64,000 bases of DNA. Origin: Verrucomicrobiota bacterium. Lineage in GTDB: Bacteria; Verrucomicrobiota; Verrucomicrobiia; Opitutales; UBA2995. The notes beneath the pieces are model-generated. The model saw only the letters and a program-made list of their open reading frames with translations. It searched no databases and had not been told where the DNA came from. The stretch spans positions 10,108 to 74,107 of the forward strand of contig JAQBYJ010000001.1 in NCBI GenBank assembly GCA_027622555.1, in the 5' to 3' direction. Position numbers and translations under genes: made by a program. How positions within the stretch are numbered: the stretch's first letter is position 1; every line of letters starts with the position of its first letter. This document shows, in pieces, positions 1 through 64,000 of the stretch.

Positions 1-543
1 TCGCGATTGAACTTCTTGTAGACGAATGTTGAGGGAATTCGCTTCTGCCCTGATTCGGGCCAGTTCCTTTTTCAAGGAAAGAATCTCAGCGTCTTTTTGT
101 TCTATGACATTGAGCATATCCATACGCTCAAGCTCAGCATCGAAGAGATTGGCTGGAAAGGTTCGTGCAAATTCTTTTTTGGCGGTGTCGATAAGCTCAC
201 GCACCATAGGGGCCTGCCTTGATGTAGGATTGAACTTAAGGTATTCGCGGAAATGATAAATCGCCAGAACAGGATCTTTGGCATGTTCCAAATAAAGCTG
301 TCCAACATTCAGATGGGACTCAGGTGCAACCGTCACGGTATCAATGACCTTAAGGAAAGCAGTAAGCGCCTGGTCGTGTCGACCCTGCCGCAAATAATCC
401 TCTCCATTTCGAAAACTTGCCAAACTTTGTTCAGAAACTTCTTCTCCTTTTGGCGGAATACAACCTGAAAGCCCAAGTAAGCAAGCTACCACGCCCAATA
501 CAGGCAGTCGTATTTTAAAAGCTAATTGGATAATAGAGGACAT
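1..543 (-). CDS. TPR/coiled-coil lipoprotein, N-terminal 181 codons (3' end runs off the window)
   Basis: Absent from the ORF track because no stop lies inside the window. Minus-strand ATG at 543 reads MSSIIQLAFKIRLPVLGVVACLLGLSGC (lipobox LSGC). TPR-like helices follow (GEDYLRQGRHDQALTAFLKVI, NVGQLYLEHAKDPVLAIYHFREYL), then a heptad-like tail (ELERMDMLNVIEQKDAEILSLKKELARIRAEANSL). The frame stays open to base 1. Confidence 0.7.
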   Translation of the reverse strand, partial: MSSIIQLAFKIRLPVLGVVACLLGLSGCIPPKGEEVSEQSLASFRNGEDYLRQGRHDQALTAFLKVIDTVTVAPESHLNVGQLYLEHAKDPVLAIYHFREYLKFNPTSRQAPMVRELIDTAKKEFARTFPANLFDAELERMDMLNVIEQKDAEILSLKKELARIRAEANSLNIRLQEVQSR

Positions 544-620
544 CGTTGAAAGGTATTGATAACCTAAATGAGTGAAATAGTGTGGGGGAAGTTAGAAGTA
601 ACTAACAATAGTATTTTCAC

Positions 621-1601
621 GTGAATTCTCAATCAATACTTCAAAGGGCCAAGCACTTTATGCAATTAGAGTCTCAGGCTATTCTCGATACCGCGGAAAC
701 GCTTGACGACTCCTTCGTTCAGGTTGTTGAGGCCATACAAAAAGTCGTAAACGGAAAACGTAAATTGATTCTTGCCGGCCTGGGGAAAAATGCAGGTATT
801 TGCCAAAAACTGGTGGGGACTTTCAATAGCATTGGAGTAAGTTCTGCATTTCTCGATCCCGTCCAAGCAGCACATGGTGACTTGGGCATGTGCCAGGAAG
901 AGGATTTAGCATTCGTTTTTAGTAATAGCGGTGAGACAAGAGAAGTCCTTGAGTTGATTCCCTTACTTCGGAGGGTCGGTGTTCAAACTGTGGCGATAAC
1001 CAGTGATAAAGAAAGTCGGCTAGCAAGTAATTGTGATAGGGTGCTGACTTATCTAGCCAAAGAGGAAGCCTGCCCGTTGAATCTTGCACCAACCGCTAGC
1101 ACAACCGCATCGCTGGCCCTTATCGATGCAGTGGCTATGGTTTTTTTAGACCAACGAGAATTTGACAAAGAAGATTTTGCAAAATTTCATCCCTCCGGAT
1201 CACTGGGAGCGAGTTTACTATTAAGGGTTAATGAAATCATGCGGAAAGGCGACCGGTTTGCCACCATCCTTGTAGGAGCCACCGTACAGGAAACTATCGT
1301 GGAGATGACTCGAGCAAAAGCCGGGTCGATAACAATAATAAATAATGAGGGCTTTTTAAAAGGGATCTTTACGGACGCTGATTTGAGAAGAGCCATTTTG
1401 AAGAACTCTGAAGTCTTCACGCGGCCAATCAATGATTTCATGACGACACATCCTATCACTATTCAGACGGGTGCGCTTGTTGCAGATGCCTTAAAAGTTT
1501 TTGAGGAAAATCCAATCGATGACCTGTTGGTAGTCAGCGAAGAAGGAAAACCCTTGGGAATGATAGACGGCCAGGATTTACCCAAGCTACGAGTCGTCTA
1601 A
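621..1601 (+). CDS. kdsD: arabinose-5-phosphate isomerase (KpsF/GutQ family, SIS + tandem CBS domains)
   Basis: 326 aa. SIS-domain motifs GLGKNAGICQKL and FSNSGETRE, followed by two CBS-like repeats (GIFTDADLRR, GMIDGQDL). GTG start. Confidence 0.85.
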   Translation: MNSQSILQRAKHFMQLESQAILDTAETLDDSFVQVVEAIQKVVNGKRKLILAGLGKNAGICQKLVGTFNSIGVSSAFLDPVQAAHGDLGMCQEEDLAFVFSNSGETREVLELIPLLRRVGVQTVAITSDKESRLASNCDRVLTYLAKEEACPLNLAPTASTTASLALIDAVAMVFLDQREFDKEDFAKFHPSGSLGASLLLRVNEIMRKGDRFATILVGATVQETIVEMTRAKAGSITIINNEGFLKGIFTDADLRRAILKNSEVFTRPINDFMTTHPITIQTGALVADALKVFEENPIDDLLVVSEEGKPLGMIDGQDLPKLRVV

Positions 1602-11349: not shown

Positions 11350-11737
11350 AATGGAGTTAGCTTTGGACTTCGTAAGCCGGATTTTGTCGTCCCGAAGGAC
11401 GGGTATTCATTTATCTAACAGACGAGTCTGTTCTCCGCAAGCGAAGCGCGACATACCCGGGATCATTAAGCGGGCCACTTGATCCCCTATTTTGTCTTGC
11501 ACCAGAATGGGTTTATCCTGCCACTCCGATTACTCGGAAGTGCGGTAGGCTCTTACCCCACCTTTTCACCCTTACCTCTCGCAAGCGAAAGGCGGTATAT
11601 TTTCTGTGACACTAGCCGTCACCTCGGTTTGATCCGAAGTGCCCCCGTTTTCACGGGGAATCCTACCCTTTGGTGTCCGGACTTTCCTCTCATATTCAAA
11701 AGAACAAAAGCGAATACCTGAAATCCAAAGCTAACTC
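11350..11737 (-). ncRNA. rnpB: RNase P RNA, bacterial type A
   Basis: The minus-strand transcript contains the universal blocks GAGAGGAAAGUCCGGACACC (CR-I), GGUAAGGGUGAAAAGGUGGGGUAAGAGCCUACC, AGAUAAAUGA and ACAAAAUCCGGCUUAC. A P1 helix forms between 5'-GAGUUAGCUUUGGA (11737..11724) and UCCAAAGCUAACUC-3' (11367..11354). The ends are approximate. Confidence 0.92.
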
Positions 11738-20337: not shown

Positions 20338-20414
<77 letters not shown>

Positions 20415-37156: not shown

Positions 37157-37232
37157 TGGAGCGGGCGATGAGATTCGAACTCACGACCCCAACCTTGGCA
37201 AGGTTGTGCTCTACCAACTGAGCTACGCCCGC
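37157..37232 (-). tRNA. tRNA-Gly (GCC), CCA encoded
   Basis: Minus strand GCGGGCGTAGCTCAGTTGGTAGAGCACAACCTTGCCAAGGTTGGGGTCGTGAGTTCGAATCTCATCGCCCGCTCCA. Canonical cloverleaf. Confidence 0.95.
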
Positions 37233-51609: not shown

Positions 51610-52485
51610 TTAAACGCGACGGCGTTTCGGTGGGCGGCATCCGTTGTGTGGAACGGGCGTTTTATCAACAATAGAGACAATGATCATTCCGAGCGCTTGA
51701 AGTGCACGAACAGCTGAGTCTCTTCCAAGGCCAGGGCCTTTAAGATGAACGGAAACTTCTCTCAATCCATGAGCCATGGCGGCGCGTGTGGCTTCTTGAG
51801 TCACAACCTGTGCAGCATATGCGGTTGATTTTCGTGATCCACGGAAATTGCATTTTCCAGCACTGCTCCAGGAAATAACATTTCCTTTTGTATCAGTAAC
51901 CGAGACCTTCGTATTATTAAATGTAGCGATTACATGTACGATTCCATGGGTAACATTCTTACTACCCTTCGCTCTGCGAATTTTAACACCACTGAGATCA
52001 TCCCCCAGTAATTCTTGAAGCGCAGAAGTTTCTCCCTTCTTTTCTTCAATTTTACCATCGCCGGAATCCTCTTCATCCGACGCGGTTGCTACCTTGGGTG
52101 ACTCTTCGGAAACTTTGGCAGGTTTTGCGGCCTTCGCAGCAGGCGCCTCTTCCTTCTCCGCTTTCGCAGGTGCTTTAACTTTAGGCGCTTCTTCCTTAGT
52201 TGCAGCTTTCGGTGTTTTCTCGGTCGCCTTTGCTGGAGCTTTCGCTTTCTTCGCTACCTTTTTGGTTTTCGCTGGAACGTCTTCTGCAGGAGCCTCTTCT
52301 TCAGCTTTCACTACAGGAACTTCGGCTTTTGGAGCCTCTTCCTTAGAATCCACTTCGCTTGTTTCTTCAACTACCTTTTCGGATTTTTTAGCTTTTGGCT
52401 TATCAACCTTAGCTTCGGCTGCTGGAGCTTCTTGCTTGGGTTCTTCGGCATTTGCCTCTTCGTTCTCTGGATTGTCAGTGCTCAT
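51610..52485 (-). CDS. rpsK: 30S ribosomal protein S11 with ~160-aa Lys/Ala/Glu/Pro-rich N-terminal extension
   Basis: The C-terminal ~130 aa are canonical uS11 ([22 protein letters not shown]...[11 protein letters not shown]...[16 protein letters not shown]). The only in-frame ATG is at 52485, 11 nt after the rpsM stop. Confidence 0.9.
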
Positions 52486-52496
52486 TTAGTGCAAAA

Positions 52497-52871
52497 TTAT
52501 TTTTTGGTTACTACGCCCACAGTTCTACGGCCGCCTTTACGAGTTCTAGCATTAGTGCTGGTACGCTGACCGCGGACTGGAAGTCCCCGGCGATGGCGAT
52601 AACCCCTGTAGCACTGGATGGCTTGAAGACGCTTTAAATTCGATGCAATATCACGACGTAGATCACCTTCAGTCATCCATTGATTACGTATTATTATCTC
52701 CGAAATCTGGTTAATCTGCTCTTCAGAAAGTTCATGCGCCCGGTGGGCATGATCGAGCTTAAGCTCAGTAACAATCGCAGTTGAGCGAGTCGGGCCGATG
52801 CCGTAAATATAACGAAGAGCGAACTCGGTTCGCTTGTTATTTGGAATGTCTACACCTAGTAATCGAGGCAT
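52497..52871 (-). CDS. rpsM: 30S ribosomal protein S13
   Basis: 124 aa. MPRLLGVDIPNNKRTEFALRYIYGIG. Confidence 0.97.
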   Translation of the reverse strand: MPRLLGVDIPNNKRTEFALRYIYGIGPTRSTAIVTELKLDHAHRAHELSEEQINQISEIIIRNQWMTEGDLRRDIASNLKRLQAIQCYRGYRHRRGLPVRGQRTSTNARTRKGGRRTVGVVTKK

Positions 52872-52936
52872 TGCTTATTGCTTGTTTGGAAATTGTGAAA
52901 AGTGGCCAAAATAACAGCTGATTAATGATTGAAAAG

Positions 52937-53704
52937 CTATTTTTTCGGTAAAGTTAATATTTCTGGACCGTCCTCTGAAATAAGGACTGTGTGCTCAAAA
53001 TGGGCTGAAGGTTTGCTATCTAGAGTGACAGCAGTCCATCCATCGGAAAGAACGCGGACGCTTGGAGTTCCGAGATTGACCATTGGCTCAATAGCCAAAG
53101 TCATTCCTGGTTTTAGTTTCTCACCTTTACCTTTACGACCGTAATTGGGGATTTGCGGTTCTTCGTGCATGGATCTTCCGACTCCGTGACCTACAAAATC
53201 TCTAACGATCGCTAAACCGCGAGATTCGATGTAAGTTTGAACAGCATTGGAAATATCCCCTACTCGACCACCAGGTTTGGCAAAACCTATGGCGAATTCG
53301 AGTGATTTGCGCGTTTCTTCGACAAGGAATTGAACGTCCTCAGAAGCTTCCCCAACAATAATAGTTTTAGCATTATCGCCGATGAACCCATCTAAGCGAA
53401 TGACAACGTCGAGTGATACAACGTCCCCATTCTTGATTGTTCGTTTCATACTTCCAATTCCGTGGACGACTTCTTCGTTCACAGAAATGCAAATATAACC
53501 GGGATACACTTTGCTTCCGTTACGATAATTGTAACAGGCGCTTGTGGCTCCCAATTCTTGAATGAACCGTTTCCCAGCTTGGTCGAGATCGTAAGTGTTA
53601 ACTCCGGGTTCTACGAGCTGAGTGACTTTATAAAGAACAGTGGCTGCAACCTCACAGGCCGCCCTCATTTTAATGATTTCAGCGCTGTTTTTGACAGGAA
53701 TCAT
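52937..53704 (-). CDS. map: type I methionine aminopeptidase
   Basis: 255 aa. Metal ligands in context: VVSLDV, GFIGDNA, GHGVG, AIEPM, FEHTV. Confidence 0.95.
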   Translation of the reverse strand: MIPVKNSAEIIKMRAACEVAATVLYKVTQLVEPGVNTYDLDQAGKRFIQELGATSACYNYRNGSKVYPGYICISVNEEVVHGIGSMKRTIKNGDVVSLDVVIRLDGFIGDNAKTIIVGEASEDVQFLVEETRKSLEFAIGFAKPGGRVGDISNAVQTYIESRGLAIVRDFVGHGVGRSMHEEPQIPNYGRKGKGEKLKPGMTLAIEPMVNLGTPSVRVLSDGWTAVTLDSKPSAHFEHTVLISEDGPEILTLPKK

Positions 53705-53740
53705 GGATTCAGAGTCATGCAGTAAACTAACAGATATAGA

Positions 53741-55249
53741 TCAGAGAACCCAGGTCCTTAGGACCCAAGAAATAATTCCAATCAGAAAAATTGCACCGAG
53801 AACGAGCATTAATGGACGTAGGTTGCCCATTTCAGACGTTACGGAAAGTTGTGGACGAGCTTTGGTAGCTGGATTGCGACCACGAATACGGCCCTTTTTC
53901 AAGAAGCCATCATAGTGGCGTTGCAAAAGATAAGTCTCAACTTGTTGTAAAACTTGAAGAATAACTCCCACCGTAATTAACATCCCGGTTCCTCCAAAGA
54001 AATTGGAGATTTGGTATGGAACGTTGAGGGAGAAAAGAAGAACATCAGGAAATAAAGCAATCAAAGTGAGGAACGCAGCACCCGCGAAGGTTAGACGAGT
54101 CATCACAAAGTCTAGAAACTTTGCAGTCGGCTCACCAGGACGAACGCCGGGAATGTAGCCCCCATTCTTTTTCAGATCATCAGCAACCTGGATCGGCTTA
54201 AACATGACCGATACCCAGAAGTAACTGAAAACCAATATTAGGAATCCAAAAATGAAATAGTAGGAGACCGTTCCTTGAACAAACCAACCGGAAATAGTTC
54301 CTAAAAATGAAAGACTGTTGAAACTGGCAGAAAGGGAAGACAGGATCTGTTGTGGAAACATCAAGATCGCACTGGCAAAAATCACAGGCATTACACCGGA
54401 GTAATTTACCTTCAGTGGAAGGAAAGAACTTTGTCCACCATAGACCTTGCGACCAACTACGCGTTTGGCGTACTGAACCGGAATTTTCCGCATGGCTTGA
54501 ATAACAGCGACAAGTCCAGCCGTTACAACCAGCAGTAACACGAACATCAACGCGAGTTCGGGAACCTCAATTCGACTGGTGCCGATAGGCGCGAAAACCA
54601 TGCGGTAAAGCGTGGCCATCGCACTGGGAAGATCGGAAATAATACCGATCATAATCAATAATGAAACTCCTTGGCCGATTCCTTTTTCAGTAATCTGCTC
54701 TCCGAGCCACATGAGAATGATAGTCCCCGTTGTTAATATGACGACCGAGCTCATTACAAACCAGGCACTATCACTCAGAATGATGGAACCATAGACCTCT
54801 TTCTCAAATCCGGAAAACAATCCTCCAGGATTTTTTAGTCCAATAATTAGCAGAGTCCCCTGGACTAAACAGATAACAATAGTAGCAAGTCGCGTGTATT
54901 GGGTAATCTTTTGTCGACCCACATCGCCTTCTCTGGCGAGACGAGCCAAACTGGGAACTACCGCTGTCATTAACTGAAAGATAATGGACGCCGATATGTA
55001 AGGCATGATGCCCAAAGCAAAAACCGCACCTTTCAGAAGTGCGCCACCCGTAAACATGTTGTAGAGACCAAGTACACCCGAGGAGCCCGATGCCGTTTGA
55101 TCTGCAAAGAAATCTTGAAGCGGCGTAGGATCTATACCGGGAAGCGGAATATTGGCACCGATCCGTGCCACAAACAGCATAGACAAGGTGAAGAAAATCT
55201 TGTTACGCAGTTCCGGTATTTTGAAACTATTTGTAAAGGCGGATAGCAT
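53741..55249 (-). CDS. secY: preprotein translocase subunit SecY (with extra C-terminal hydrophobic segment)
   Basis: 502 aa. LRNKIFFTL, GIMPYISASII, GGYIPGVRPG. A canonical-looking end (LLQRHYDGFLKKGRIRGR) is followed by 44 more residues including LRPLMLVLGAIFLIGIISWVL. Confidence 0.95.
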   Translation of the reverse strand: MLSAFTNSFKIPELRNKIFFTLSMLFVARIGANIPLPGIDPTPLQDFFADQTASGSSGVLGLYNMFTGGALLKGAVFALGIMPYISASIIFQLMTAVVPSLARLAREGDVGRQKITQYTRLATIVICLVQGTLLIIGLKNPGGLFSGFEKEVYGSIILSDSAWFVMSSVVILTTGTIILMWLGEQITEKGIGQGVSLLIMIGIISDLPSAMATLYRMVFAPIGTSRIEVPELALMFVLLLVVTAGLVAVIQAMRKIPVQYAKRVVGRKVYGGQSSFLPLKVNYSGVMPVIFASAILMFPQQILSSLSASFNSLSFLGTISGWFVQGTVSYYFIFGFLILVFSYFWVSVMFKPIQVADDLKKNGGYIPGVRPGEPTAKFLDFVMTRLTFAGAAFLTLIALFPDVLLFSLNVPYQISNFFGGTGMLITVGVILQVLQQVETYLLQRHYDGFLKKGRIRGRNPATKARPQLSVTSEMGNLRPLMLVLGAIFLIGIISWVLRTWVL

Positions 55250-55270
55250 TTAGTTTTGGGTCAAAAAAGC

Positions 55271-55717
55271 TTAAGCAAGTTCGGTTACTTCACCACCAGC
55301 CGCTTCAATCTTTTGCTTGGCAGTAACAGAAAATTTATGAGCACTGACCTTGTAGGCTTTGTCTACTTCGCCAGTTCCCAAGATCTTTACCAGCTTCGAT
55401 CCAGGACGCAAAACGCCCACCTTCGATAAGGTTTCGGGATTTGCTTCTGTCTCATCTCCGAGTTTTGCCAGATCACTGAGGTTCACAACTTCATACGAGG
55501 TCGTAAACTGGGCGTTACTGAAACCACGGTGCGGCAACTTACGATAAAGAGGCATTTGACCACCTTCAAAACCGATGCGAATTCCACCGCCAGTCCGTGC
55601 TTTCTGTCCTTTGTGGCCTTTCCCACAGGTCTTGCCTGTTCCGGAGCTTTCTCCGTTGCCAAGACGTTTTTTGCGGTGAACAGCACCAGGTGTATTTTTA
55701 AGATTATGTAATCTCAT
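55271..55717 (-). CDS. rplO: 50S ribosomal protein L15
   Basis: 148 aa. MRLHNLKNTPGAVHRKKRLGNGESSGTGKTCGKGHKGQKAR. Confidence 0.96.
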   Translation of the reverse strand: MRLHNLKNTPGAVHRKKRLGNGESSGTGKTCGKGHKGQKARTGGGIRIGFEGGQMPLYRKLPHRGFSNAQFTTSYEVVNLSDLAKLGDETEANPETLSKVGVLRPGSKLVKILGTGEVDKAYKVSAHKFSVTAKQKIEAAGGEVTELA

Positions 55718-55734
55718 TGCGAAAATCTCGTTGA

Positions 55735-56214
55735 TTAATCTGCGTTGCGAATTGCAGCAATATGTTCCTTTGAGCGTAATTGCCTCAATCCATCTAAAGT
55801 GGCGTTGATCATGGCCCGGTGGTTGTTTGAACCAAGGGACTTAGAAAGAATATTTTTAACTCCAACTGCTTCGAGCACAGCGCGAACCCCGCCTCCGGCA
55901 ATGACTCCGGTTCCCGGACCGGCTGGGCGCAAAATAACTTTTCCGCCTCCGGACACACCGATAACGGCATGAGGTATGGTGTCATTACGCAGCGGAACAG
56001 TAACCATATTTTTGTGTGCTTTTTCCGTTCCTTTGCGAATTGCTTCAGGTACTTCTTTTGCTTTACCCATTCCAACACCTACGCGGCCATGGAGATCACC
56101 GGTTACTACGGTGGAGGAAAAACTAAAACGACGTCCACCCTTTACGACTTTCGCGCAACGGTTGATGTTGACAACTTTATCTACCAATTCTGGTGCTTCT
56201 TCTGGAGTAGCCAT
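55735..56214 (-). CDS. rpsE: 30S ribosomal protein S5
   Basis: [46 protein letters not shown] at 56214; the track TTG at 56232 abuts the rplR stop. Confidence 0.95.
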
Positions 56215-56232
56215 AATAAATTCGTTTAACAA

Positions 56233-56595
56233 TTAGAATGTTAGGCCACCCTCCCGAGCAGCATCTGCGAATGCTTTTACGCACCCGTGGTATATACGTC
56301 CACTACGATCAAACACGACCTTTTCAACTCCTGCGCCTTTCGCCCGTTCGGCAACAATTTTGCCAACGGCTTGGGCACCTTCAACATTTGCCTTTAGGTT
56401 TTGACCCTTGAGGTCTTTGCTCAACGAGGACACATAGACCAAGGTCTTACCCGCATTGTCGTCAATGAGTTGGCCATAGACGTGTTTGTTACTGAGGTGA
56501 ACAGCAAGACGAGGGCGTTCAGCTGAACCGATAATTTTCTTACGGATGCGCCAGCGACGTTTTTGTTTTTGAATAATTTTTTTATTAACTTTCAT
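56233..56595 (-). CDS. rplR: 50S ribosomal protein L18
   Basis: Start at the ATG at 56595, preceded by GGAGG. KRRWRIRKKI..RPRLAVHLSNKHVYGQLIDD, FDRSGRIYHGCVKAFADAAREGGL. The longer track ORF overlaps rplF. Confidence 0.95.
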   Translation of the reverse strand: MKVNKKIIQKQKRRWRIRKKIIGSAERPRLAVHLSNKHVYGQLIDDNAGKTLVYVSSLSKDLKGQNLKANVEGAQAVGKIVAERAKGAGVEKVVFDRSGRIYHGCVKAFADAAREGGLTF

Positions 56596-56608
56596 GATCA
56601 GTCCTCCC

Positions 56609-57148
56609 TTATTTACCGGCTGTTTTACCTTCCTTACGGCGGACGTATTCACCGACAATCTTCACCCCTTTGCCTTTGTATGGCTCTGGTGGGTAAAACG
56701 CGCGGATCGACGCAGCGGCTTCACCAACCATTTGCTTGTCGATGCCTTCGACTTTCAACTTGGTGTTGTCTTTAACCGTGATAGTTATTCCCGAAGGAAT
56801 TGCATAAAGACACGGGTGAGAGTAACCCAGGTTCAGATCGAGATTATTGCCGTTTAACGCAGCTCGAAAACCTACTCCACTGATCTCAAGGTCTTTGCTG
56901 TATCCATCAACAACACCAGTCACCATATTGGCGATCAGTGAGCGGACAGTTCCATACATAGCCTTTGAAAAGCGTGAATTGCCAGAAGGTGCCACAATGA
57001 TCTGAGCCTCTTCTTTTGTTATAGTTACAGCATTGGGGAACTCTTTTTTCAGTTTACCTTTAGGGCCCTCGACGGACACTACATTGGCTTCAACTGAAAC
57101 AGTTACTTGTCCCGGAATGTCTACTGGTAATTTTCCAATTCTACTCAT
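56609..57148 (-). CDS. rplF: 50S ribosomal protein L6
   Basis: MSRIGKLPVDIPGQVTV from the ATG at 57148, preceded by GGAGG. PEPYKGKGV. The longer track ORF overlaps rpsH. Confidence 0.95.
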   Translation of the reverse strand: MSRIGKLPVDIPGQVTVSVEANVVSVEGPKGKLKKEFPNAVTITKEEAQIIVAPSGNSRFSKAMYGTVRSLIANMVTGVVDGYSKDLEISGVGFRAALNGNNLDLNLGYSHPCLYAIPSGITITVKDNTKLKVEGIDKQMVGEAAASIRAFYPPEPYKGKGVKIVGEYVRRKEGKTAGK

Positions 57149-57158
57149 CGTATCCTCC

Positions 57159-57551
57159 TTATTGGACTTTGCAGATAAGTTCGCCACCCACGTTTTGCTG
57201 ACGTGCCTGGTAATCCGTCATCAAACCCTGCGATGTAGTTAGAATGCCAGTACCCATGCCACCAAGTACTTTTGGTACTTCGCTCGCGGCAAAATAGATA
57301 CGGCGACCTGGACGACTGAAGCGCTCAATGGATGAAAAGGCAGGTTCGCCATCTACGAATTTGAGCTCAACTTTCAGGAATTTCTTGTTTCCCGGCATGT
57401 CGATATCCTCGTAGCCTCGAATGTAACCACTCGCTTTTAAAATGCGGGCGATTTCGCGCTTCATTTTTGAATGCTGTACTTGGCAAGACTCCTTGTTCGC
57501 CGCGGATGCATTCCGTATTTGTGTTAAAAAATCTGCAATCGGATCTGTCAT
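57159..57551 (-). CDS. rpsH: 30S ribosomal protein S8
   Basis: 130 aa. MTDPIADFLTQIRNA, GGELICKV. Confidence 0.96.
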   Translation of the reverse strand: MTDPIADFLTQIRNASAANKESCQVQHSKMKREIARILKASGYIRGYEDIDMPGNKKFLKVELKFVDGEPAFSSIERFSRPGRRIYFAASEVPKVLGGMGTGILTTSQGLMTDYQARQQNVGGELICKVQ

Positions 57552-57601
57552 GGATTAATTAGGTGAAGTTGGATGATATCCGTATTCCCAACGTGTTTAG
57601 T

Positions 57602-57907
57602 TTACCAAGAGGATTTAGTTACCCCAGGGATACGACCAGCAAGAGCCAGTTCGCGGAAAGTTATACGAGAAAGACCGAAGCGCCCCATATAAGCACGGGG
57701 ACGACCGGTGATGTTGCAACGGTTGCGCAAACGTACTGCAGAAGAGTTGCGTGGCAACTTTATGAGCGCACGTTGTGCCTGGAAAAACTCTTCGTCCTTT
57801 ACGTCAGGGCTCGAGAGAATTTTCTTAAGTTCAGCACGACGCTCAGCATATTTTGCAACGAGGCGTTCGCGTTTCTTATTTCGATGAATTGCAGAGATCT
57901 TTGCCAT
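57602..57907 (-). CDS. rpsN: 30S ribosomal protein S14 (long, zinc-independent form)
   Basis: 101 aa. [48 protein letters not shown]...W. No CxxC pairs. Confidence 0.95.
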
Positions 57908-57919
57908 AATATAAGAGAA

Positions 57920-58474
57920 TTAAGCTGAAGGAGTAACCTTGCGAAAAGGCATACCCAGAAGCGTTAGAAGTTCGAGACCCTCATCGTCGGTAGATGCACT
58001 GGTGACGATACAAACATCCATTCCGACCAAGTGCTTATGGGTATCGACGTTGATTTCTGGGAAAATGGTATGATCGGCGATTCCGAGGGTATAATTACCA
58101 CGGCCATCCAATTTTTTACCAATTCCTCGGAAATCCCGAATTAAAGGAAGGGAGACAGTGATCATACGATAAAGAAATTCCCACATGCTGTTACCCCGAA
58201 GCGTAACTTTAACTCCTACGGGCATTCCTTCGCGTAATTTGAAATTCGAAATGCTGACACGCGAAAGGGTAATGACTGGTTTTTGGCCGGTTATAAGACC
58301 TAGGTCCTTGGCGATGTCGTTGATAACATTCTTATCGTTACTGGAACCAACGCCCGAGTTTAGGACGATTTTGGTTACCTTGGGAACTTGCATTACGTTC
58401 TTATATCCGCGGCTCTTTATTAGCGCTGGAACGATTTGCTCGTTATAAGTAGTTTTAAGTGCTGGTTGATTCAT
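57920..58474 (-). CDS. rplE: 50S ribosomal protein L5
   Basis: 184 aa. NVMQVPKVTKIVLNSGVG, RDFRGI, GNYTLGI. Confidence 0.96.
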   Translation of the reverse strand: MNQPALKTTYNEQIVPALIKSRGYKNVMQVPKVTKIVLNSGVGSSNDKNVINDIAKDLGLITGQKPVITLSRVSISNFKLREGMPVGVKVTLRGNSMWEFLYRMITVSLPLIRDFRGIGKKLDGRGNYTLGIADHTIFPEINVDTHKHLVGMDVCIVTSASTDDEGLELLTLLGMPFRKVTPSA

Positions 58475-58583
58475 TTTGTTTTTTGCCGGACTTTTAACCC
58501 GGCGGCTAAACCTTTGAGCCTAATTAGAAAGGTGGTGGAGAAAGACAAAGTTAAGATACCTTGGCAAGCGGTTAATCAATGGA

Positions 58584-58838
58584 TTATTTTGAGCGTCGAG
58601 CGTTGTAGCGCGACTCTTCCATTAGGTTCGAATTGTGGATGCTAGCCTCACGTTCAATGATGCCACCAGACTGACGATCCTCGGCACTCGTTTGTTTTTG
58701 GTGACGCTTGACCATATTGAGGCCTTCAACGATAGACCGTTCTTTGTTCTTGTTGATCTGAAGAACTTTGCCGGACTTGCCCTTTTGGCTTCCGCTAATA
58801 GCGACGACGGTGTCGCCGGTTTTAAAGTGCATTTTCAT
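58584..58838 (-). CDS. rplX: 50S ribosomal protein L24 (short)
   Basis: 84 aa. [24 protein letters not shown] (KOW motif), EASIHNSNL. Confidence 0.92.
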
Positions 58839-59204
58839 TTATAGAACCTCCGGTGCTAAAGAAATAATTTTCATAAACCGCTTGCGGCGCAATTCACGGG
58901 CTACGGGACCAAAGATTCGAGTACCTTTGGGATTCTTTTTGTCATCGATAATGACGATGGCGTTGCTATCGAAGCGAAGGTAACTACCATCAGCCCGACG
59001 AATCGGCGCCTTGGTTCGAACTACCACCCCACGGACGACATCTCCTTTTTTAACGGACGCGTCAGTGGTGCTTTCTTTGATATGAACCACGACGATATCA
59101 CCAACGCTGGCGGTTTTTTTCATCTGGCCGAGGCGACGGATCATCTTCGCTTTTTTGGCGCCGGTGTTGTCCGCAATGTCTACACTACTTAGAAGCTGAA
59201 TCAT
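58839..59204 (-). CDS. rplN: 50S ribosomal protein L14
   Basis: 121 aa. [27 protein letters not shown]. Confidence 0.97.
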
Positions 59205-59230
59205 TGTAAATTTTCTCTCTGTTAGAAGGG

Positions 59231-59500
59231 TTAGTCCAGGACGGGTGCCACTTCAATAACACGGGTAATACGAAAGCGTTTGAGCTTACTTATGGGACGT
59301 GTCTCCATGATCTCGACTTTATCGCCGGCCTTGGATTCGTTTTTCTCGTCATGCACGTGCAATACGGTCTTCCGGTTAATCACCTTATGATAACGTGGGT
59401 GTGGAATTTTATAAGCCACTGTCACTTTGACGGACTTGTCTCCAGAACGGCTTGAAACCACTCCTTGCAAAACTTTTCGACTATTTCTTTCTTCTGCCAT
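59231..59500 (-). CDS. rpsQ: 30S ribosomal protein S17
   Basis: 89 aa. [43 protein letters not shown]. Confidence 0.96.
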
Positions 59501-59514
59501 GATAAATACTCCTG

Positions 59515-59715
59515 TTACTTGGCGGCGGCTACGGCGCGTTCTTTCAAAATGGTTTCCATACGGGCGATATTCCTTCGCAGAACTCGCAATTCGGAGGGCG
59601 TTTCCACCTGTCCCGATTGTTTACGTAAACGAAGGTGCAGCAATTCGCTACTAGTGTCGCGCAGTTGCTTTTCTATTTCTTGTTCGGAAAGGTTTCTAAC
59701 TTCTTTAGCTTTCAT
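59515..59715 (-). CDS. rpmC: 50S ribosomal protein L29
   Basis: 66 aa. MKAKEVRNLSEQEIEKQLRDTSSELLHLRLRK. Confidence 0.94.
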   Translation of the reverse strand: MKAKEVRNLSEQEIEKQLRDTSSELLHLRLRKQSGQVETPSELRVLRRNIARMETILKERAVAAAK

Positions 59716-59726
59716 GATAATAATTC

Positions 59727-60146
59727 CTAATCGATTGTCTCACGGACAACAAAACGGCATCTAAAAGGTAATTTCCCATCGGCAAGTCGCATGCCTTCGC
59801 GAGCGATAGTCTCACTGACACCTCCCACTTCGAACAACATGGTGCCGGGTTTGATGACAGCTACCCAATGGTCAACGCTACCTTTACCCTTACCCATCCG
59901 TACTTCTAATGGTTTTTTGGTAATTGGCTTTTGTGGGAATATACGAATCCACACTTTACCTTTTCTTTTTAAATAACGGGTCACAGCAACACGAGCAGCT
60001 TCAATTTGCTGAGCAGTCATGGCACCACGCTCGAGTGATTGGATGCCAAAATCTCCAAAGGCAAGGGTGTTCCCACGTTGGGCTATCCCATTAACGCGGC
60101 CTTTGTGCTGCTTGCGATACTTGGTTCTAGATGGTAATAAAGGCAT
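59727..60146 (-). CDS. rplP: 50S ribosomal protein L16
   Basis: 139 aa. [36 protein letters not shown]. Confidence 0.97.
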
Positions 60147-60173
60147 GATTCAAATTCTCTTTTTCAGTCCGAT

Positions 60174-60800
60174 TTATTCTTCGTTTTCTTTTAGTATCCA
60201 GCATTTCACACCGATAATTCCATATACGGTACTGGCTTCCGCAAATCCATAGTCGATATCTTCACGCAGGGTATGAAGAGGAACCCGACCTTTTTTTACC
60301 ATTTCAGCGCGGGCGATATCAGTACCTCCCAGACGCCCGGCAACGCGGATCTTAATTCCTTGGACGCCGAGGCTATCAGCAATCTGCACGGCTTTTTTCA
60401 TGGCGCGGCGAAATGAAATGCGTCGCTCAAGTTGAAGAGCCACATTCTCAGCGACCAATTGTGCTTCAATCTCAGGTTTTTTGACCTCCTGGATGTCCAG
60501 CATAACTTCGCGCTTTACCAGCTTGTTTAATTTCGCTTTGAGCTTTTCAAGCTCCTGACCTTTACGACCAATAACGATACCTGGACGAGCGGTATAGATT
60601 TTTACGCGAATACGATTGGACGCACGCTCAATAAAAATACGTGGCACAGAAGCGAACCTGAGTTTGTCGGTGAGTATCTTCCGGATACGGTAATCCTCTT
60701 CGAGGCAAATGCTGAAATTCTTCTTATCGGCATACCAGCGTGACTCCCAGTTACGGCGGACCGCTAGGCGAAAACCAATTGGATGTGTTTTTTGTCCCAT
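60174..60800 (-). CDS. rpsC: 30S ribosomal protein S3
   Basis: 208 aa. MGQKTHPIGFRLAVRRNWESRWYA, KH domain, GRLGGTDIAR. Confidence 0.97.
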   Translation of the reverse strand: MGQKTHPIGFRLAVRRNWESRWYADKKNFSICLEEDYRIRKILTDKLRFASVPRIFIERASNRIRVKIYTARPGIVIGRKGQELEKLKAKLNKLVKREVMLDIQEVKKPEIEAQLVAENVALQLERRISFRRAMKKAVQIADSLGVQGIKIRVAGRLGGTDIARAEMVKKGRVPLHTLREDIDYGFAEASTVYGIIGVKCWILKENEE

Positions 60801-60818
60801 GTTGCTTGTGTCTCTAAA

Positions 60819-61154
60819 TTATTTGTCGTCAGAAAGGATGATGCGAATGTGGCTCGTACGCTTAACGAAAGGTTTAGCAGAACCACGGGCACCAGCACGA
60901 AAACGTTTAAGGCTAGGGCCTTCCTCAATAACTGCTTTTTTAATGATAAGATCCTCGCCGGAAAGGTTGTTGTTATTTTCGGCGTTCGCTATAGCTGAAT
61001 GCAGGGTCTTTGCCACTAGACGAGCCGACTTGCGTGGAATAAACTTTAACAGTTGTTCTGCTTCAGCGGCGCGACGACCTTGAATCTCGCGAATAACTTC
61101 GCGGGCCTTCTTAGGTGATACCCGAACGTATTTTGTGAGTGCCTGGACTTCCAT
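60819..61154 (-). CDS. rplV: 50S ribosomal protein L22
   Basis: 111 aa. RVSPKKAREVIREIQGR, GPSLKRFRAGARGSAKPFVKRTSHI. Confidence 0.96.
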   Translation of the reverse strand: MEVQALTKYVRVSPKKAREVIREIQGRRAAEAEQLLKFIPRKSARLVAKTLHSAIANAENNNNLSGEDLIIKKAVIEEGPSLKRFRAGARGSAKPFVKRTSHIRIILSDDK

Positions 61155-61166
61155 GATTACTTCGTT

Positions 61167-61508
61167 TTAAAGAGTTTGTACTTTGATTTTTGCCCGATCT
61201 CCAATTGCTAGAGATTCATGGGGACTAATTTGCGTAATGAGTGCTGCGGAGCAGTCTTTGTCTGAGCGAGTTACCAACAACTCCCCAATTTTACGACCTT
61301 CGCGAAAGACGGATAAAAGCATGCCACGTTCAATGCCCTGTTGGAGGCCGCCGCTGATCGCGACGAGATCCGCCAATTCACCGGCTTCGATAGCAGCAAC
61401 AAGTATTCCATTCTGGGAGCCGTGATTATCCGCATACAGGCTGGCAGAGCTTGCTCCGAAAACCAGAGAAGCAACTAACAGCGAGCGTATACAAATAATC
61501 AGATTCAT
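61167..61508 (-). CDS. small secreted hypothetical protein embedded in the S10 operon
   Basis: 113 aa from the ATG at 61508, which lies 7 nt after the rpsS stop. Its own stop is 12 nt before the rplV start. Signal peptide MNLIICIRSLLVASLVFGASSASLYA. The mature ~87-aa part is beta-rich (GMLLSVFREGRKIGELLVTRSDKDCSAALITQI..LAIGDRAKIKV). No family recognised. The track ORF start at 61571 would overlap rpsS. Confidence 0.6.
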   Translation of the reverse strand: MNLIICIRSLLVASLVFGASSASLYADNHGSQNGILVAAIEAGELADLVAISGGLQQGIERGMLLSVFREGRKIGELLVTRSDKDCSAALITQISPHESLAIGDRAKIKVQTL

Positions 61509-61515
61509 CCTAAAA

Positions 61516-61785
61516 TTATTTCTTGGTATGAGTTCCGTGACTCTTGAATGTGCGGGTTTGAGAAAATTCACCTAACTTGTGTCCCACCATATTCTCAGTT
61601 ACGTATACCGGCAAAAATGCTTTGCCGTTGTGCACGTTGATTGTCAGGCCGACAAAGTCTGGAGTGATAGTAGAACGGCGTGACCAAGTATTAAGTGGTT
61701 TGCGTGAGTTAGCCTTTTGAGCGATCGCAACCTTATCCATCAACTTGGGATCTATGAAAAAACCTTTTTTTAGTGAACGAGCCAT
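61516..61785 (-). CDS. rpsS: 30S ribosomal protein S19
   Basis: 89 aa. [38 protein letters not shown]. Confidence 0.97.
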
Positions 61786-61790
61786 GTGAA

Positions 61791-62633
61791 TTAACGCTTA
61801 AACTTTTTACCGTTACGATTAACGAGAATGAATTTGTTGGTCGTCTTCGACTTACGACGTGTGGGGAAGCCCTTAGACAATTGACCCCACGGTGAAGTGG
61901 GATGTCCACCACCAGAGGTACGACCCTCACCACCACCCATAGGGTGATCGACAGGGTTCATCGCAACACCGCGAACACGAGGACGTTTTCCTAACCAGCG
62001 AGACCGACCTGCTTTACCGATTGTGCGACTTTGGTGTTGGTGGTTACCAACTTCTCCAATCGTGGCGCGGCACTTCAGATTCACCAAACGAATTTCTCCA
62101 CTTGGCATTTTAACAGTCGCATAACCTCCATCAAGGCCCATCAACTGAGCAGCAGTTCCAGCAGCGCGAGCAACTTGTCCTCCCTTTCCGGGAATAAGCT
62201 CAATGTTGTGAATCTTGGTTGAGGGCGGAATATTGGAAAGAACTAATGAGTTGCCTGGATTGATCTCACTTGAAGTTTCAGAAGCAACAATACTGTCACC
62301 GATCTCTAGACCACGTGGGGCTATAATGTAGCGTTTTTCTCCATCCGCATACGCGAGCAATGCAAGATTGGCCGAACGATTTGGATCATACTGAATGTCC
62401 TGGATCTTCGCCGGGATATCCAACTTCTCTCTACGGAAATCAATGATACGAATGTGGCGTTTATGTCCTCCGCCTCTTCGGCGAGTGGTAATACGACCAT
62501 AAGCATTACGTCCACTAGACCGCTTCTTGTGAATGGTCAGTCCACGCTCTGGGCGGGCTTTCGACAGTTCCACTTTGTTCTGCTTATAAAATCTCTGACT
62601 AGGAGTTATGGGTCTTTTTTCTACGAGTGCCAT
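61791..62633 (-). CDS. rplB: 50S ribosomal protein L2
   Basis: 280 aa. [38 protein letters not shown]. Confidence 0.97.
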
Positions 62634-62652
62634 TTTGAAAGTTCGGTGTGTG

Positions 62653-62943
62653 TTATACTATTTCGATGGTGTCGCCGTCCTTCAAAGACACGATGGCCCT
62701 TTTGACAGATGCAGTCTGGCCGAATTTGCCACGACGTTTACGATCACTCTTTCTCTTACCTTTACGGTTAAGAATATTAACGCGAGTTACAGTCACATTG
62801 AATGTCTTTTCAACAGCATGCTTAACAGAGATCCTGTCGGCTTCTGGAAAGACTTCGAAAGTATACTGTCCAAGATTGGAAGACAGGATATTCGATTTCT
62901 CCGTGATACTAAATTCTTTCAATACTTGATACGCAGGTTTCAT
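62653..62943 (-). CDS. rplW: 50S ribosomal protein L23
   Basis: 96 aa. [41 protein letters not shown]. Confidence 0.94.
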
Positions 62944-63575
62944 GAATTGTCGGCCTCCATCCGTTGCATGAGGGTGGCGATTGCTGCTTCAGTTATAACA
63001 ATAGTGCTATAAAGTGAAAGTTGCAGTGTGTTGAGATAGGCAGCATCTTCAGTGTCCAACCCGGCGATATTGCGTGAAGCAAAAACCACTTCGTCTTGAA
63101 ACCCGCTGTCTACGATGAGAATGGATCCGCGCGTTGGAACAACCTGCTTGATCACATCCACAAATAGCTTGGTCTTTGGCTCAGCAATTTTGAACTCTTT
63201 AATGACAACGAGAGATCCATCGACTGCCCGGTCGAAAAGTGCACGCTGGAAGGCAAGTGACTTAACCTTCTTGTTCACCTTTTTGGAATAGTCGCGTGGT
63301 TTAGGACCCATGGCAACACCACCACCAGAATGAAGGGGTGACCTGGAACTTCCCTGGCGAGCCATACCCGTGCCTTTTTGGCGGAAAGGTTTCTTACCTC
63401 CACCTCGAACCTCTGCGCGAGTTTTCGTGCTGGCGGTTCCGAAGCGCTTGTTCGCGCGAATGGCAATTATTACTTCCTTAATGGCTTGAACGCCTCTGTC
63501 TCCTTCGAATGAAGGGAAGGCAAATTCTTTATTACCGCTGGAAGATCCGTCTGATTTAAAAGTCTTCAGTTTCAT
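62940..63575 (-). CDS. rplD: 50S ribosomal protein L4
   Basis: 211 aa. RGGGKKPFRQKGTGMARQGSSRSPLHSGGGVAMGPKPRDY. Confidence 0.96.
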   Translation of the reverse strand: MKLKTFKSDGSSSGNKEFAFPSFEGDRGVQAIKEVIIAIRANKRFGTASTKTRAEVRGGGKKPFRQKGTGMARQGSSRSPLHSGGGVAMGPKPRDYSKKVNKKVKSLAFQRALFDRAVDGSLVVIKEFKIAEPKTKLFVDVIKQVVPTRGSILIVDSGFQDEVVFASRNIAGLDTEDAAYLNTLQLSLYSTIVITEAAIATLMQRMEADNS

Positions 63576-63590
63576 GATTTAATGCTCCTG

Positions 63591-64000
63591 TTAGGCTCTC
63601 GCTGTGCGGGTTTTCTTTGAAGTACGGATAAGAACCTGAGAACCGTTGAACCCAGGAGTGCTTCCTTTAACAAGAATGAGGTTTTTGTCCTCATAAATCT
63701 TAACAACCTTCAAGTTTTGAACGGTCCGCTGCTTGTCACCCATATGACCAGGCATGATTTGCCCTTTAAACACATGGCCAGGATCTTGACACAGACCGAT
63801 GGAACCAATCCGGCGATGGAACATAGATCCATGAGAGGCAGGACCACCTTTAACGTTCCAACGTTTTACTACGCCTTGGAAGCCACGGCCCTTAGTAGTT
63901 CCAACCACATCGACTTTAGCTCCTTCGACAAATCCAGATACTGTTAAAGTGTCTCCAACTTTTACCTCTGGTACTGAAGTGCAGCGAATTTCTCTCAATT
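63591..64000 (-). CDS. rplC: 50S ribosomal protein L3, C-terminal part (5' end beyond the window)
   Basis: GTTKGRGFQGVVKRWNVKGGPASHGS..HRRIGSIG, MPGHMGDKQRTVQNLKVV. The frame is open to the window edge. Confidence 0.95.
   Translation of the reverse strand, partial: LREIRCTSVPEVKVGDTLTVSGFVEGAKVDVVGTTKGRGFQGVVKRWNVKGGPASHGSMFHRRIGSIGLCQDPGHVFKGQIMPGHMGDKQRTVQNLKVVKIYEDKNLILVKGSTPGFNGSQVLIRTSKKTRTARA

Follow-up and report, generated by a model that had tools for sequence, protein, structure and literature searches.

A conserved gene for a predicted exported beta-barrel protein lies between rpsS and rplV in the S10 operon of Opitutales-like Verrucomicrobiota

Introduction

The gene order rplB-rpsS-rplV-rpsC is a near-invariant landmark in bacterial genomics, and to our knowledge no interruption of the rpsS-rplV pair has been reported. 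In a 64,000-nucleotide stretch from a Verrucomicrobiota bacterium (assembly GCA_027622555.1, contig JAQBYJ010000001.1, positions 10,108 to 74,107 of the forward strand; hereafter the window), an open reading frame (ORF) of 113 codons stands between these two genes and separates ribosomal protein S19 from L22. An initial annotation had drawn attention to this ORF and to the gaps of 7 and 12 nt on its two sides, and the ORF coordinates and the Pfam-identified flanking genes bear this description out (Table 1). The locus raises two questions. Is the ORF a real gene, and if so, what could its product be doing among the ribosomal proteins? We find it next to certain that this is a real, conserved gene that is co-transcribed with its neighbors. 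The whole best explanation, to which we assign a probability of about 0.68, is that the gene at the junction encodes an exported periplasmic scaffold or adaptor protein that is made together with the ribosomal proteins.

Results

Conservation and selection of the junction gene

A search of 5.8 billion proteins returned 32 close clusters with 56-100% identity, nearly all of 113 amino acids (aa), and the identical protein was present on five contigs of up to 147 kb. When the profile of the close clusters was compared with 1.84 billion representatives, 179 representatives (at 50% identity) matched at E≤1e-3. Most of them were 100-130 aa long, with a hydrophobic N-terminus followed by a conserved domain of about 75 residues. 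Two further searches gave 451 and 444 clusters at 90% identity, and homology extended down to about 25-30% identity. The conserved domain, which was modeled as a small β-barrel, carries the motif ADLV-x-GG-x3-G-x3-GM ... GELLV ... SAALI ... GD.

The synonymous sites are saturated among the close orthologues (proportion of synonymous differences, pS, 0.55-0.78), so the ratios of nonsynonymous to synonymous substitution rates (dN/dS) are approximate; they amounted to 0.05-0.15 for the barrel residues 34-113, 0.3-0.9 for the first 33 residues, and 0.01-0.08 for rpsS and rplV, which were taken for comparison. The relaxed value of the N-terminal part is as expected for a signal peptide. From these sequence comparisons, the C-terminal domain is under purifying selection. 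A comparison with related genomes had been asked for when the ORF was first described, and in these relatives an ORF at the rpsS/rplV junction is indeed conserved and selected.

We considered whether the ORF could be an artefact, be it an accidental reading frame in a spacer, a structured regulatory RNA or the product of faulty assembly. The irregular copies are two defective ones in metagenome assemblies, P0030 with a frameshifted tail and P0032 with an internal deletion, together with the truncated copy L063 described below, and nothing lends such a reading positive support. It is opposed by the amino-acid conservation across saturated synonymous sites, by the identical protein on several contigs, and by the recurrence of the rpsS-rplV layout in many independent assemblies from NCBI, JGI, ENA, Tara and Logan. 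A scan of positions 56000-64000 gave no Rfam match around the locus at E≤1, and on this result the reading as an RNA element was rejected. Protein conservation, selection, and the lack of an Rfam family or a conserved RNA structure together rule out that the ORF arose by chance, is an RNA leader or reflects misassembly, and the probability of an artefact is negligible.

Position and lineage distribution

The S10-spc string runs on the minus strand of the window in the order L3, L4, L23, L2, S19, the inserted ORF, L22, S3, L16, L29 and S17, and continues with L14, L24, L5, S14, S8, L6, L18, S5, L15, SecY, Map, S13 and S11. The longest mechanical ORF (134 aa) begins at coordinate 61571 with a GTG and shares sequence with the 3' end of rpsS; the ATG at 61508 is the start common to the close orthologues.

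The position of the gene was the same wherever the flanks could be read. Genomic context was looked up for 12 family members, which span the range from 56% identity to family-profile matches at only E~1e-4. All 12 have rpsS directly upstream and 11 have rplV directly downstream; the contig of the remaining one stops within the gene. In a set of 39 metagenome loci, those with enough flank had S19 upstream in 33 of 33 cases and L22 downstream in 33 of 34. The single exception to this synteny, L063 (positions 35-928, plus strand), lies on a 1.3-kb contig, where the family gene stays intact over some 70 residues before unrelated sequence takes over. The contig is either a chimeric assembly, as seems probable, or carries a truncated and relocated copy. 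The opposite strand of this contig holds an unidentified 271-aa ORF.

The flanking proteins L2, S19 and L22 drop to 59-64% identity with those of the window, and the GC content of the loci ranges from 42 to 62%. This wide divergence of the flanks and the range in GC content indicate that the insertion is old. As the same junction is occupied in every sampled lineage, the insertion appears to have had a single origin. Every taxonomic label that we recovered, whether from the title of a genome record, the name of the family protein or the names of the adjoining ribosomal proteins, reads Opitutaceae, Opitutales or Verrucomicrobia/Verrucomicrobiota. A phmmer search started from a soil Opitutaceae member gave no cultured carrier among its best 120 matches, all of which came from uncultured sources. 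Neither Pfam nor NCBIfam contains the family, and in the source records that we saw the product is named a hypothetical protein or the gene is left uncalled. The searchable literature yielded nothing relevant on an rpsS/rplV insertion in Verrucomicrobia or in S10 operons.

A small signature protein of the Planctomycetes-Verrucomicrobia-Chlamydiae (PVC) group, CT421.2, has a length of 53 to just over 80 aa and occurs in all PVC phyla (PMC3444138). Like the junction protein, it is a small, lineage-restricted PVC protein of unassigned function. In contrast, the junction family measures about 105-125 aa, carries a predicted signal peptide, and has labeled members exclusively from Opitutales/Verrucomicrobiota. 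The two are set apart by description, and on the described length and distribution we set CT421.2 aside as a different, shorter protein.

Fold and relatives of the mature domain

The first AlphaFold run, on the full-length protein with 30 close sequences, reached a predicted local distance difference test (pLDDT) value of 72, and its Foldseek matches were mostly generic barrels. For the structure search this model was replaced by one of the mature domain (residues 31-113) built with 65 diverse sequences, which had a pLDDT of 93.1 and a predicted template modeling score (pTM) of 0.81. The mature-domain model is a closed barrel of six strands, in which the conserved GG-x3-G-x3-GM loop includes a short helical turn. 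The mature part of the window protein has a net charge of -2 and one Cys (C86), so that the initial description of a β-rich, mildly acidic part with one Cys agrees with both the model and the composition. Across the family, the median net charge of the domain is +2.

Among the Foldseek matches of this model, the Vibrio LPHT ring (8z5n) ranked second, FlgT (3w1e) third, and MreC (7eft/2j5u) fourth and sixth. The match to 8z5n_0 had an E-value of 1.2e-2 and that to FlgT 1.4e-2, with a query-normalized TM-score (TMq) of 0.64 and a root-mean-square deviation of 5.9 Å, and generic barrels scored similarly. Profile comparisons pointed in the same direction at low scores. No Pfam or NCBIfam family was matched at threshold by the window protein or by 56 diverse members. 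FlgT_C (PF16538), with a gathering cut-off of 27 bits, matched one of the 56 members at E=0.0059 and did not match the window protein. MreC was the most recurrent weak match among the members, with a best E-value of 3.1e-5 in NCBIfam and of 0.0012 in Pfam, where the best score was 19.1 bits vs a cut-off of 28 bits; here too the window protein itself gave no match. No ribosomal protein family was matched in Pfam or NCBIfam, the only likeness of that kind being a weak one, at the level of the fold, to eL33-like barrels. Two profiles were also compared with the sequences of the Protein Data Bank (PDB), where no match was significant; TsaP came first at E=0.35, and its motif looks similar by eye. 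The TsaP domain has been termed FlgT-like (bioRxiv 10.1101/2020.05.29.123786).

The family profile also matched repeats in periplasmic proteins of several domains, among them a BlaR1/M56 peptidase and a Secretin_N protein. FlgT_C was the best Pfam match of four of the five matched segments tested, at E~1e-4. Single related repeats scored 18-24 bits to FlgT_C, and the threshold was passed on the whole proteins P0108 and P0167. An hhalign comparison of the family with the multidomain repeats gave a probability of 97.8%, for a comparison set that had been picked by the family's own profile. In the large periplasmic proteins P0108, P0154, P0074, P0047 and P0088, the barrel is repeated two to four or more times. 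They include the BlaR1/M56 peptidase, which has three repeats at its C-terminus, the Secretin_N protein, and a protein of 1272 aa whose repeats are N-terminal. Such multidomain repeat proteins are possible donors of the single-domain junction gene.

With Foldseek E-values around 1e-2 and generic barrels scoring about as well, we describe the protein as a distant relative of the FlgT_C/TsaP/MreC periplasmic barrels and a member of neither Pfam family. The initial annotation had recognized no family. This holds at the Pfam and NCBIfam thresholds, but the protein is not an orphan fold.

The relatives are parts of larger envelope structures. FlgT belongs to the H-ring, TsaP forms a ring around the PilQ secretin, and MreC is a scaffold for peptidoglycan synthases. 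The junction protein resembles the C-terminal domain of FlgT (PF16538, PDB 3W1E) and the CI/CII domains of TsaP (PDB 6VE2) in being a small periplasmic-type barrel (β-roll) some 75 residues long, in which strand 2 is followed by the same G-x3-G-x3-G loop. It differs in having a single domain within 113 aa, without the N-terminal and middle domains of FlgT or the LysM domain of TsaP. The compact barrel model gave no sign of the 'finger' subdomain of FlgT_C, for which no direct check was made. The genes also differ in setting, because the junction gene lies in a ribosomal operon, not among flagellar or pilus genes, and has only ribosomal neighbors at all loci. MreC is a protein of 250-370 aa with a transmembrane anchor, a coiled coil and two barrels, encoded in mreBCD. 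Its core (PF04085, TIGR00219; 2J5U, 7EFT) is similar in that an N-terminal membrane-targeting segment is followed by a small periplasmic barrel. The junction protein, unlike MreC, has one barrel and no coiled coil, is 113 aa long and is encoded in the S10 operon.

The N-terminus and predicted export

In the full-length AlphaFold model, a helix spans residues 3-18 and is followed by a disordered segment at residues 20-32. Of 351 single-domain family members, 99% have a strongly hydrophobic N-terminal segment and 92% a net-positive n-region. By heuristic tests, the N-terminus has the three regions of a Sec signal peptide cleaved by signal peptidase (SPase) I, namely a positive n-region, an h-region of 7-15 residues, and a polar c-region with small residues at -3/-1. 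The window protein has K/R ahead of its hydrophobic core, and ASSA and LYA are candidate cleavage sites. A lipobox-like motif for SPase II, defined as [LVI][ASTVI][GAS]C at the end of the h-region, occurs in 30 of the 351 members (~9%). No lipobox was found in the window protein, where Cys6 falls in the n-region and is not conserved.

Judged by these heuristics, the N-terminus is best regarded as a putative cleavable Sec signal peptide rather than a transmembrane anchor. A signal peptide had been proposed at the outset, and signal-peptide-like properties hold across the 351 homologues. Export of the product through Sec is predicted, and we consider it likely.

The opposite topology would give a membrane-anchored protein facing the ribosome, in which an uncleaved anchor holds a cytoplasmic barrel that binds ribosomes or nascent chains, for example to tether ribosomes to the membrane. 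This would explain the fixed location, as the place within the S10 operon is strictly conserved, and translation-related barrels such as IF2 domain II and eL33/L35Ae-like proteins appear at similar Foldseek scores. However, the uncharged hydrophobic run has a median of 12 residues (interquartile range 10-16) and reaches at least 20 residues in just 4.6% of the 351 members, which is too short for a typical transmembrane helix. The flank on the N-terminal side is more positive than that on the C-terminal side in 98% of members, a charge bias that predicts an N-in, C-out topology. Furthermore, the lipobox-like motifs are sensible only for exported proteins, the relatives at the sequence level are periplasmic domains, and the mature domain lacks the basic character of typical RNA-binding ribosomal proteins. 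We therefore regard a ribosome-facing anchor as highly unlikely.

Co-transcription and translation

The gaps on both sides of the gene are short. The upstream gap measures 6-7 nt in close relatives and from -1 to 44 nt in distant ones; of eight close-clade loci, seven have a downstream gap of 12 nt and one (L014) a gap of 11 nt, and in distant relatives this gap ranges from 5 to about 116 nt. No promoter-like or terminator-like site was found on the coding strand within the ORF or in either gap. Given the tiny gaps and the lack of such sites, co-transcription on the S10 polycistron seems the only reasonable reading of the sequence. We infer, as the initial annotation had asserted, that the gene must be co-transcribed, there being neither room nor sites for a promoter or terminator of its own.

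No Shine-Dalgarno (SD) motif was found in the 7-nt upstream gap. SD-like motifs are scarce in the whole window, where they precede 6 of 20 ribosomal genes and 7 of 42 others, and many S10-operon genes in the window and in loci L001-L024 lie less than 25 nt apart or overlap. The scarcity of SD motifs and the short or overlapping spacing suggest that genes of this lineage usually start translation independently of SD motifs or by coupling. The ORF-rplV junction showed no conserved RNA structure: the RNAalifold consensus had an energy of -4.9 kcal/mol and a single covarying pair, and folding of the single sequence gave a z-score of +0.60.

These features bear on whether the protein might be a secretion monitor of the SecM/MifM/VemP type, in which stalling governed by Sec activity would set the translation of rplV and the downstream ribosomal genes. 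The predicted signal peptide, the 12-nt gap to the next cistron, the lack of an SD motif, and the presence of secY in the same gene cluster are compatible with such a device. Yet no conserved RNA structure is available to mask the rplV start, and the downstream gap widens to about 83-116 nt in distant relatives. What is conserved in the protein is no short arrest motif at the C-terminus but a whole domain of 80 residues, which is strongly held by purifying selection and for which a folded structure is predicted with confidence. Known secretion-monitoring substrates regulate sec or yidC genes, not ribosomal genes, and here the downstream gene is rplV. Taken together, a secretion monitor is very improbable.

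Other features of the window

The coordinates of the junction gene, its parts and its flanks are collected in Table 1, along with the structured RNAs of the window. In the whole window, Rfam matches at the gathering threshold comprised the RNase P RNA and two tRNAs and nothing else.

Several features of the ribosomal protein cluster were observed in passing. The rpsK (S11) ORF at 51610-52485 on the minus strand encodes 291 aa, and the Ribosomal_S11 domain covers residues 181-290 only. The first ~165 residues form a low-complexity extension rich in Lys, Ala, Glu and Pro and resembling histone H1. The rpsK ATG lies 11 nt past the rpsM stop, so the extension looks translated. In the spc/alpha region (52497-58474, minus strand), the interval from S5 to L15 showed no ORF for L30, and that from secY to map none for adenylate kinase. 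The SecY protein, with 502 aa, is long, and its Pfam SecY domain stops at residue 433.

Table 1. Positions of the junction gene, its flanking genes and the structured RNAs in the window
Feature	Position	Strand	Remarks
rpsS (ribosomal protein S19), upstream gene	61516-61785	-	89 aa; Pfam PF00203 Ribosomal_S19, E=1.3e-34
Gap from rpsS stop (TAA) to ATG of inserted gene	61509-61515	-	7 nt
Inserted ORF	61167-61508	-	113 codons/aa; ATG at 61508
Residues 1-26, Sec-type signal-peptide-like N-terminus (MNLIICIRSLLVASLVFGASSASLYA)	61431-61508	-	AlphaFold helix and family-wide composition
Residues 27-33, variable linker DNHGSQN	61410-61430	-	Poorly conserved; residues 20-32 with pLDDT <50
Residues 34-113, predicted six-stranded β-barrel domain, FlgT_C / MreC-barrel type	61170-61409	-	AlphaFold, Foldseek, dN/dS
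Stop codon of inserted gene (TAA)	61167-61169	-	
Gap from stop of inserted gene to rplV ATG	61155-61166	-	12 nt
rplV (ribosomal protein L22), downstream gene	60819-61154	-	111 aa; Pfam PF00237 Ribosomal_L22, E=7.3e-35
Bacterial RNase P RNA, class A	11358-11729	-	Rfam, 227.6 bits
tRNA-Met(CAT)	20338-20414	-	Rfam
tRNA-Gly(GCC)	37157-37232	-	Rfam

Discussion

We propose that the gene entered the S10 operon between rpsS and rplV in the ancestor of a deep verrucomicrobial clade, which would be Opitutales by every label available, and that it stayed there. It would be transcribed on the S10 polycistron and probably translated by termination-reinitiation coupling from rpsS through the ORF to rplV, a proposal based on the gaps of 6-7 and 11-12 nt and the lack of an SD motif. 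Sharing the S10 polycistron, synthesis of the protein would follow ribosome synthesis and growth rate. The product would be exported through Sec and released into the periplasm in most lineages, and the lipobox-like motif suggests that it may be anchored by lipid in about 9% of members. In the envelope, the barrel could act as a protein-protein scaffold or adaptor, like its relatives around secretins, flagellar rings and peptidoglycan synthases, in amounts that would need to scale with growth. This last role is the weakest step of the explanation. It is drawn from analogy, and we offer it tentatively, as a possible but doubtful function.

Several observations weigh against this explanation. 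No specific partner or pathway is linked to the protein, and the scaffold role is proposed by analogy alone. Expression, export and periplasmic location are predictions. The codon adaptation of the gene is intermediate (0.74, vs medians of 0.77 for ribosomal and 0.72 for other genes), in a genome where codon bias is weak and SD motifs are rare, which makes both codon adaptation and SD usage uninformative. The relationship to the periplasmic barrels is also distant. No Foldseek match reached E≤1e-3, all E-values being around 1e-2, and generic barrels, including the F1-ATPase N-domain, riboflavin synthase, IF2 domain II and eL33-like proteins, scored about equal to FlgT and MreC. The Pfam/NCBIfam cut-off for FlgT_C or MreC was reached by neither the window protein nor the 56 diverse members. 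The hhalign test is partly circular, since its comparison set was found with the family profile. Finally, the cysteines carry no disulfide signature of an oxidizing compartment. Cys is most common at alignment positions 65 and 86, and these two co-occurred in the raw set (p=6e-5), but this was lost after filtering for redundancy at <60% identity (p=0.42), leaving no evidence for a conserved disulfide.

The intermediate codon adaptation also fits a neutral passenger, an ordinary periplasmic protein whose function is unrelated to growth coupling and whose gene landed once at this place and was kept only because rearrangements of the S10 operon are strongly counter-selected. The gene order of this operon is notoriously rigid, and a single apparent origin with the same junction in every sampled lineage is what such a history would leave. 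A neutral passenger shares every demonstrated step with the exported scaffold and differs from it only on whether the location matters. On this point, the gene was neither lost nor moved in any sampled lineage, over a divergence of the ribosomal proteins to ~60% identity, and the coupling distances in the close clade were held at 6-7 and 11-12 nt. The lack of loss or movement and the constant distances suggest that the arrangement itself is maintained, and we consider a neutral passenger unlikely.

If the location does matter, it might do so more directly than the exported scaffold requires. The protein could be a lineage-specific coupling device, an abundant periplasmic or, in some lineages, lipid-anchored structural protein that is made in stoichiometric amounts with ribosomes and so ties envelope growth to ribosome synthesis. 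Its co-translational targeting might then tether the S10 mRNA to the membrane, and so affect where or how efficiently L22, S3 and L16 are made. We regard this extension as distinctly unlikely.

Returning to the exported scaffold, its setting has partial precedents. Known passengers of ribosomal operons include secY, adk, map and infA in spc, and secE-nusG beside rplKAJL. These genes are near-universal, their functions are known, and they occupy the distal part of spc; the window has both secY and map in its own spc operon. The junction gene resembles them in that a non-ribosomal, envelope-directed product would be co-transcribed with ribosomal proteins. In contrast to them, it is lineage-specific and splits the rpsS-rplV pair inside S10. 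The initial annotation had called an exported protein among ribosomal genes unusual. This was overstated, since the adjacent spc operon includes secY, a gene for a membrane protein. Thus, non-ribosomal and even membrane-directed genes in ribosomal operons were already known, as was the structural class of the domain. What is new is the place inside S10 that splits S19 from L22, its fixation throughout the lineage, and the single-domain form, which is predicted to be exported.

The finding does not challenge current understanding unless the location proves functional. Its consequences are of a more practical kind. Annotation pipelines and marker-gene tools that assume adjacency of rpsS and rplV should expect a gene at this junction. 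A stable break in a near-invariant order is a clean rare genomic change, and may serve as a taxonomic marker for Opitutales-like Verrucomicrobiota. The work also adds an unannotated family to the FlgT_C/MreC-like periplasmic barrels. For the biology of these bacteria, the locus would be a natural case in which a predicted exported protein shares its mRNA, and probably the coupled ribosomes that read it, with core ribosomal proteins.

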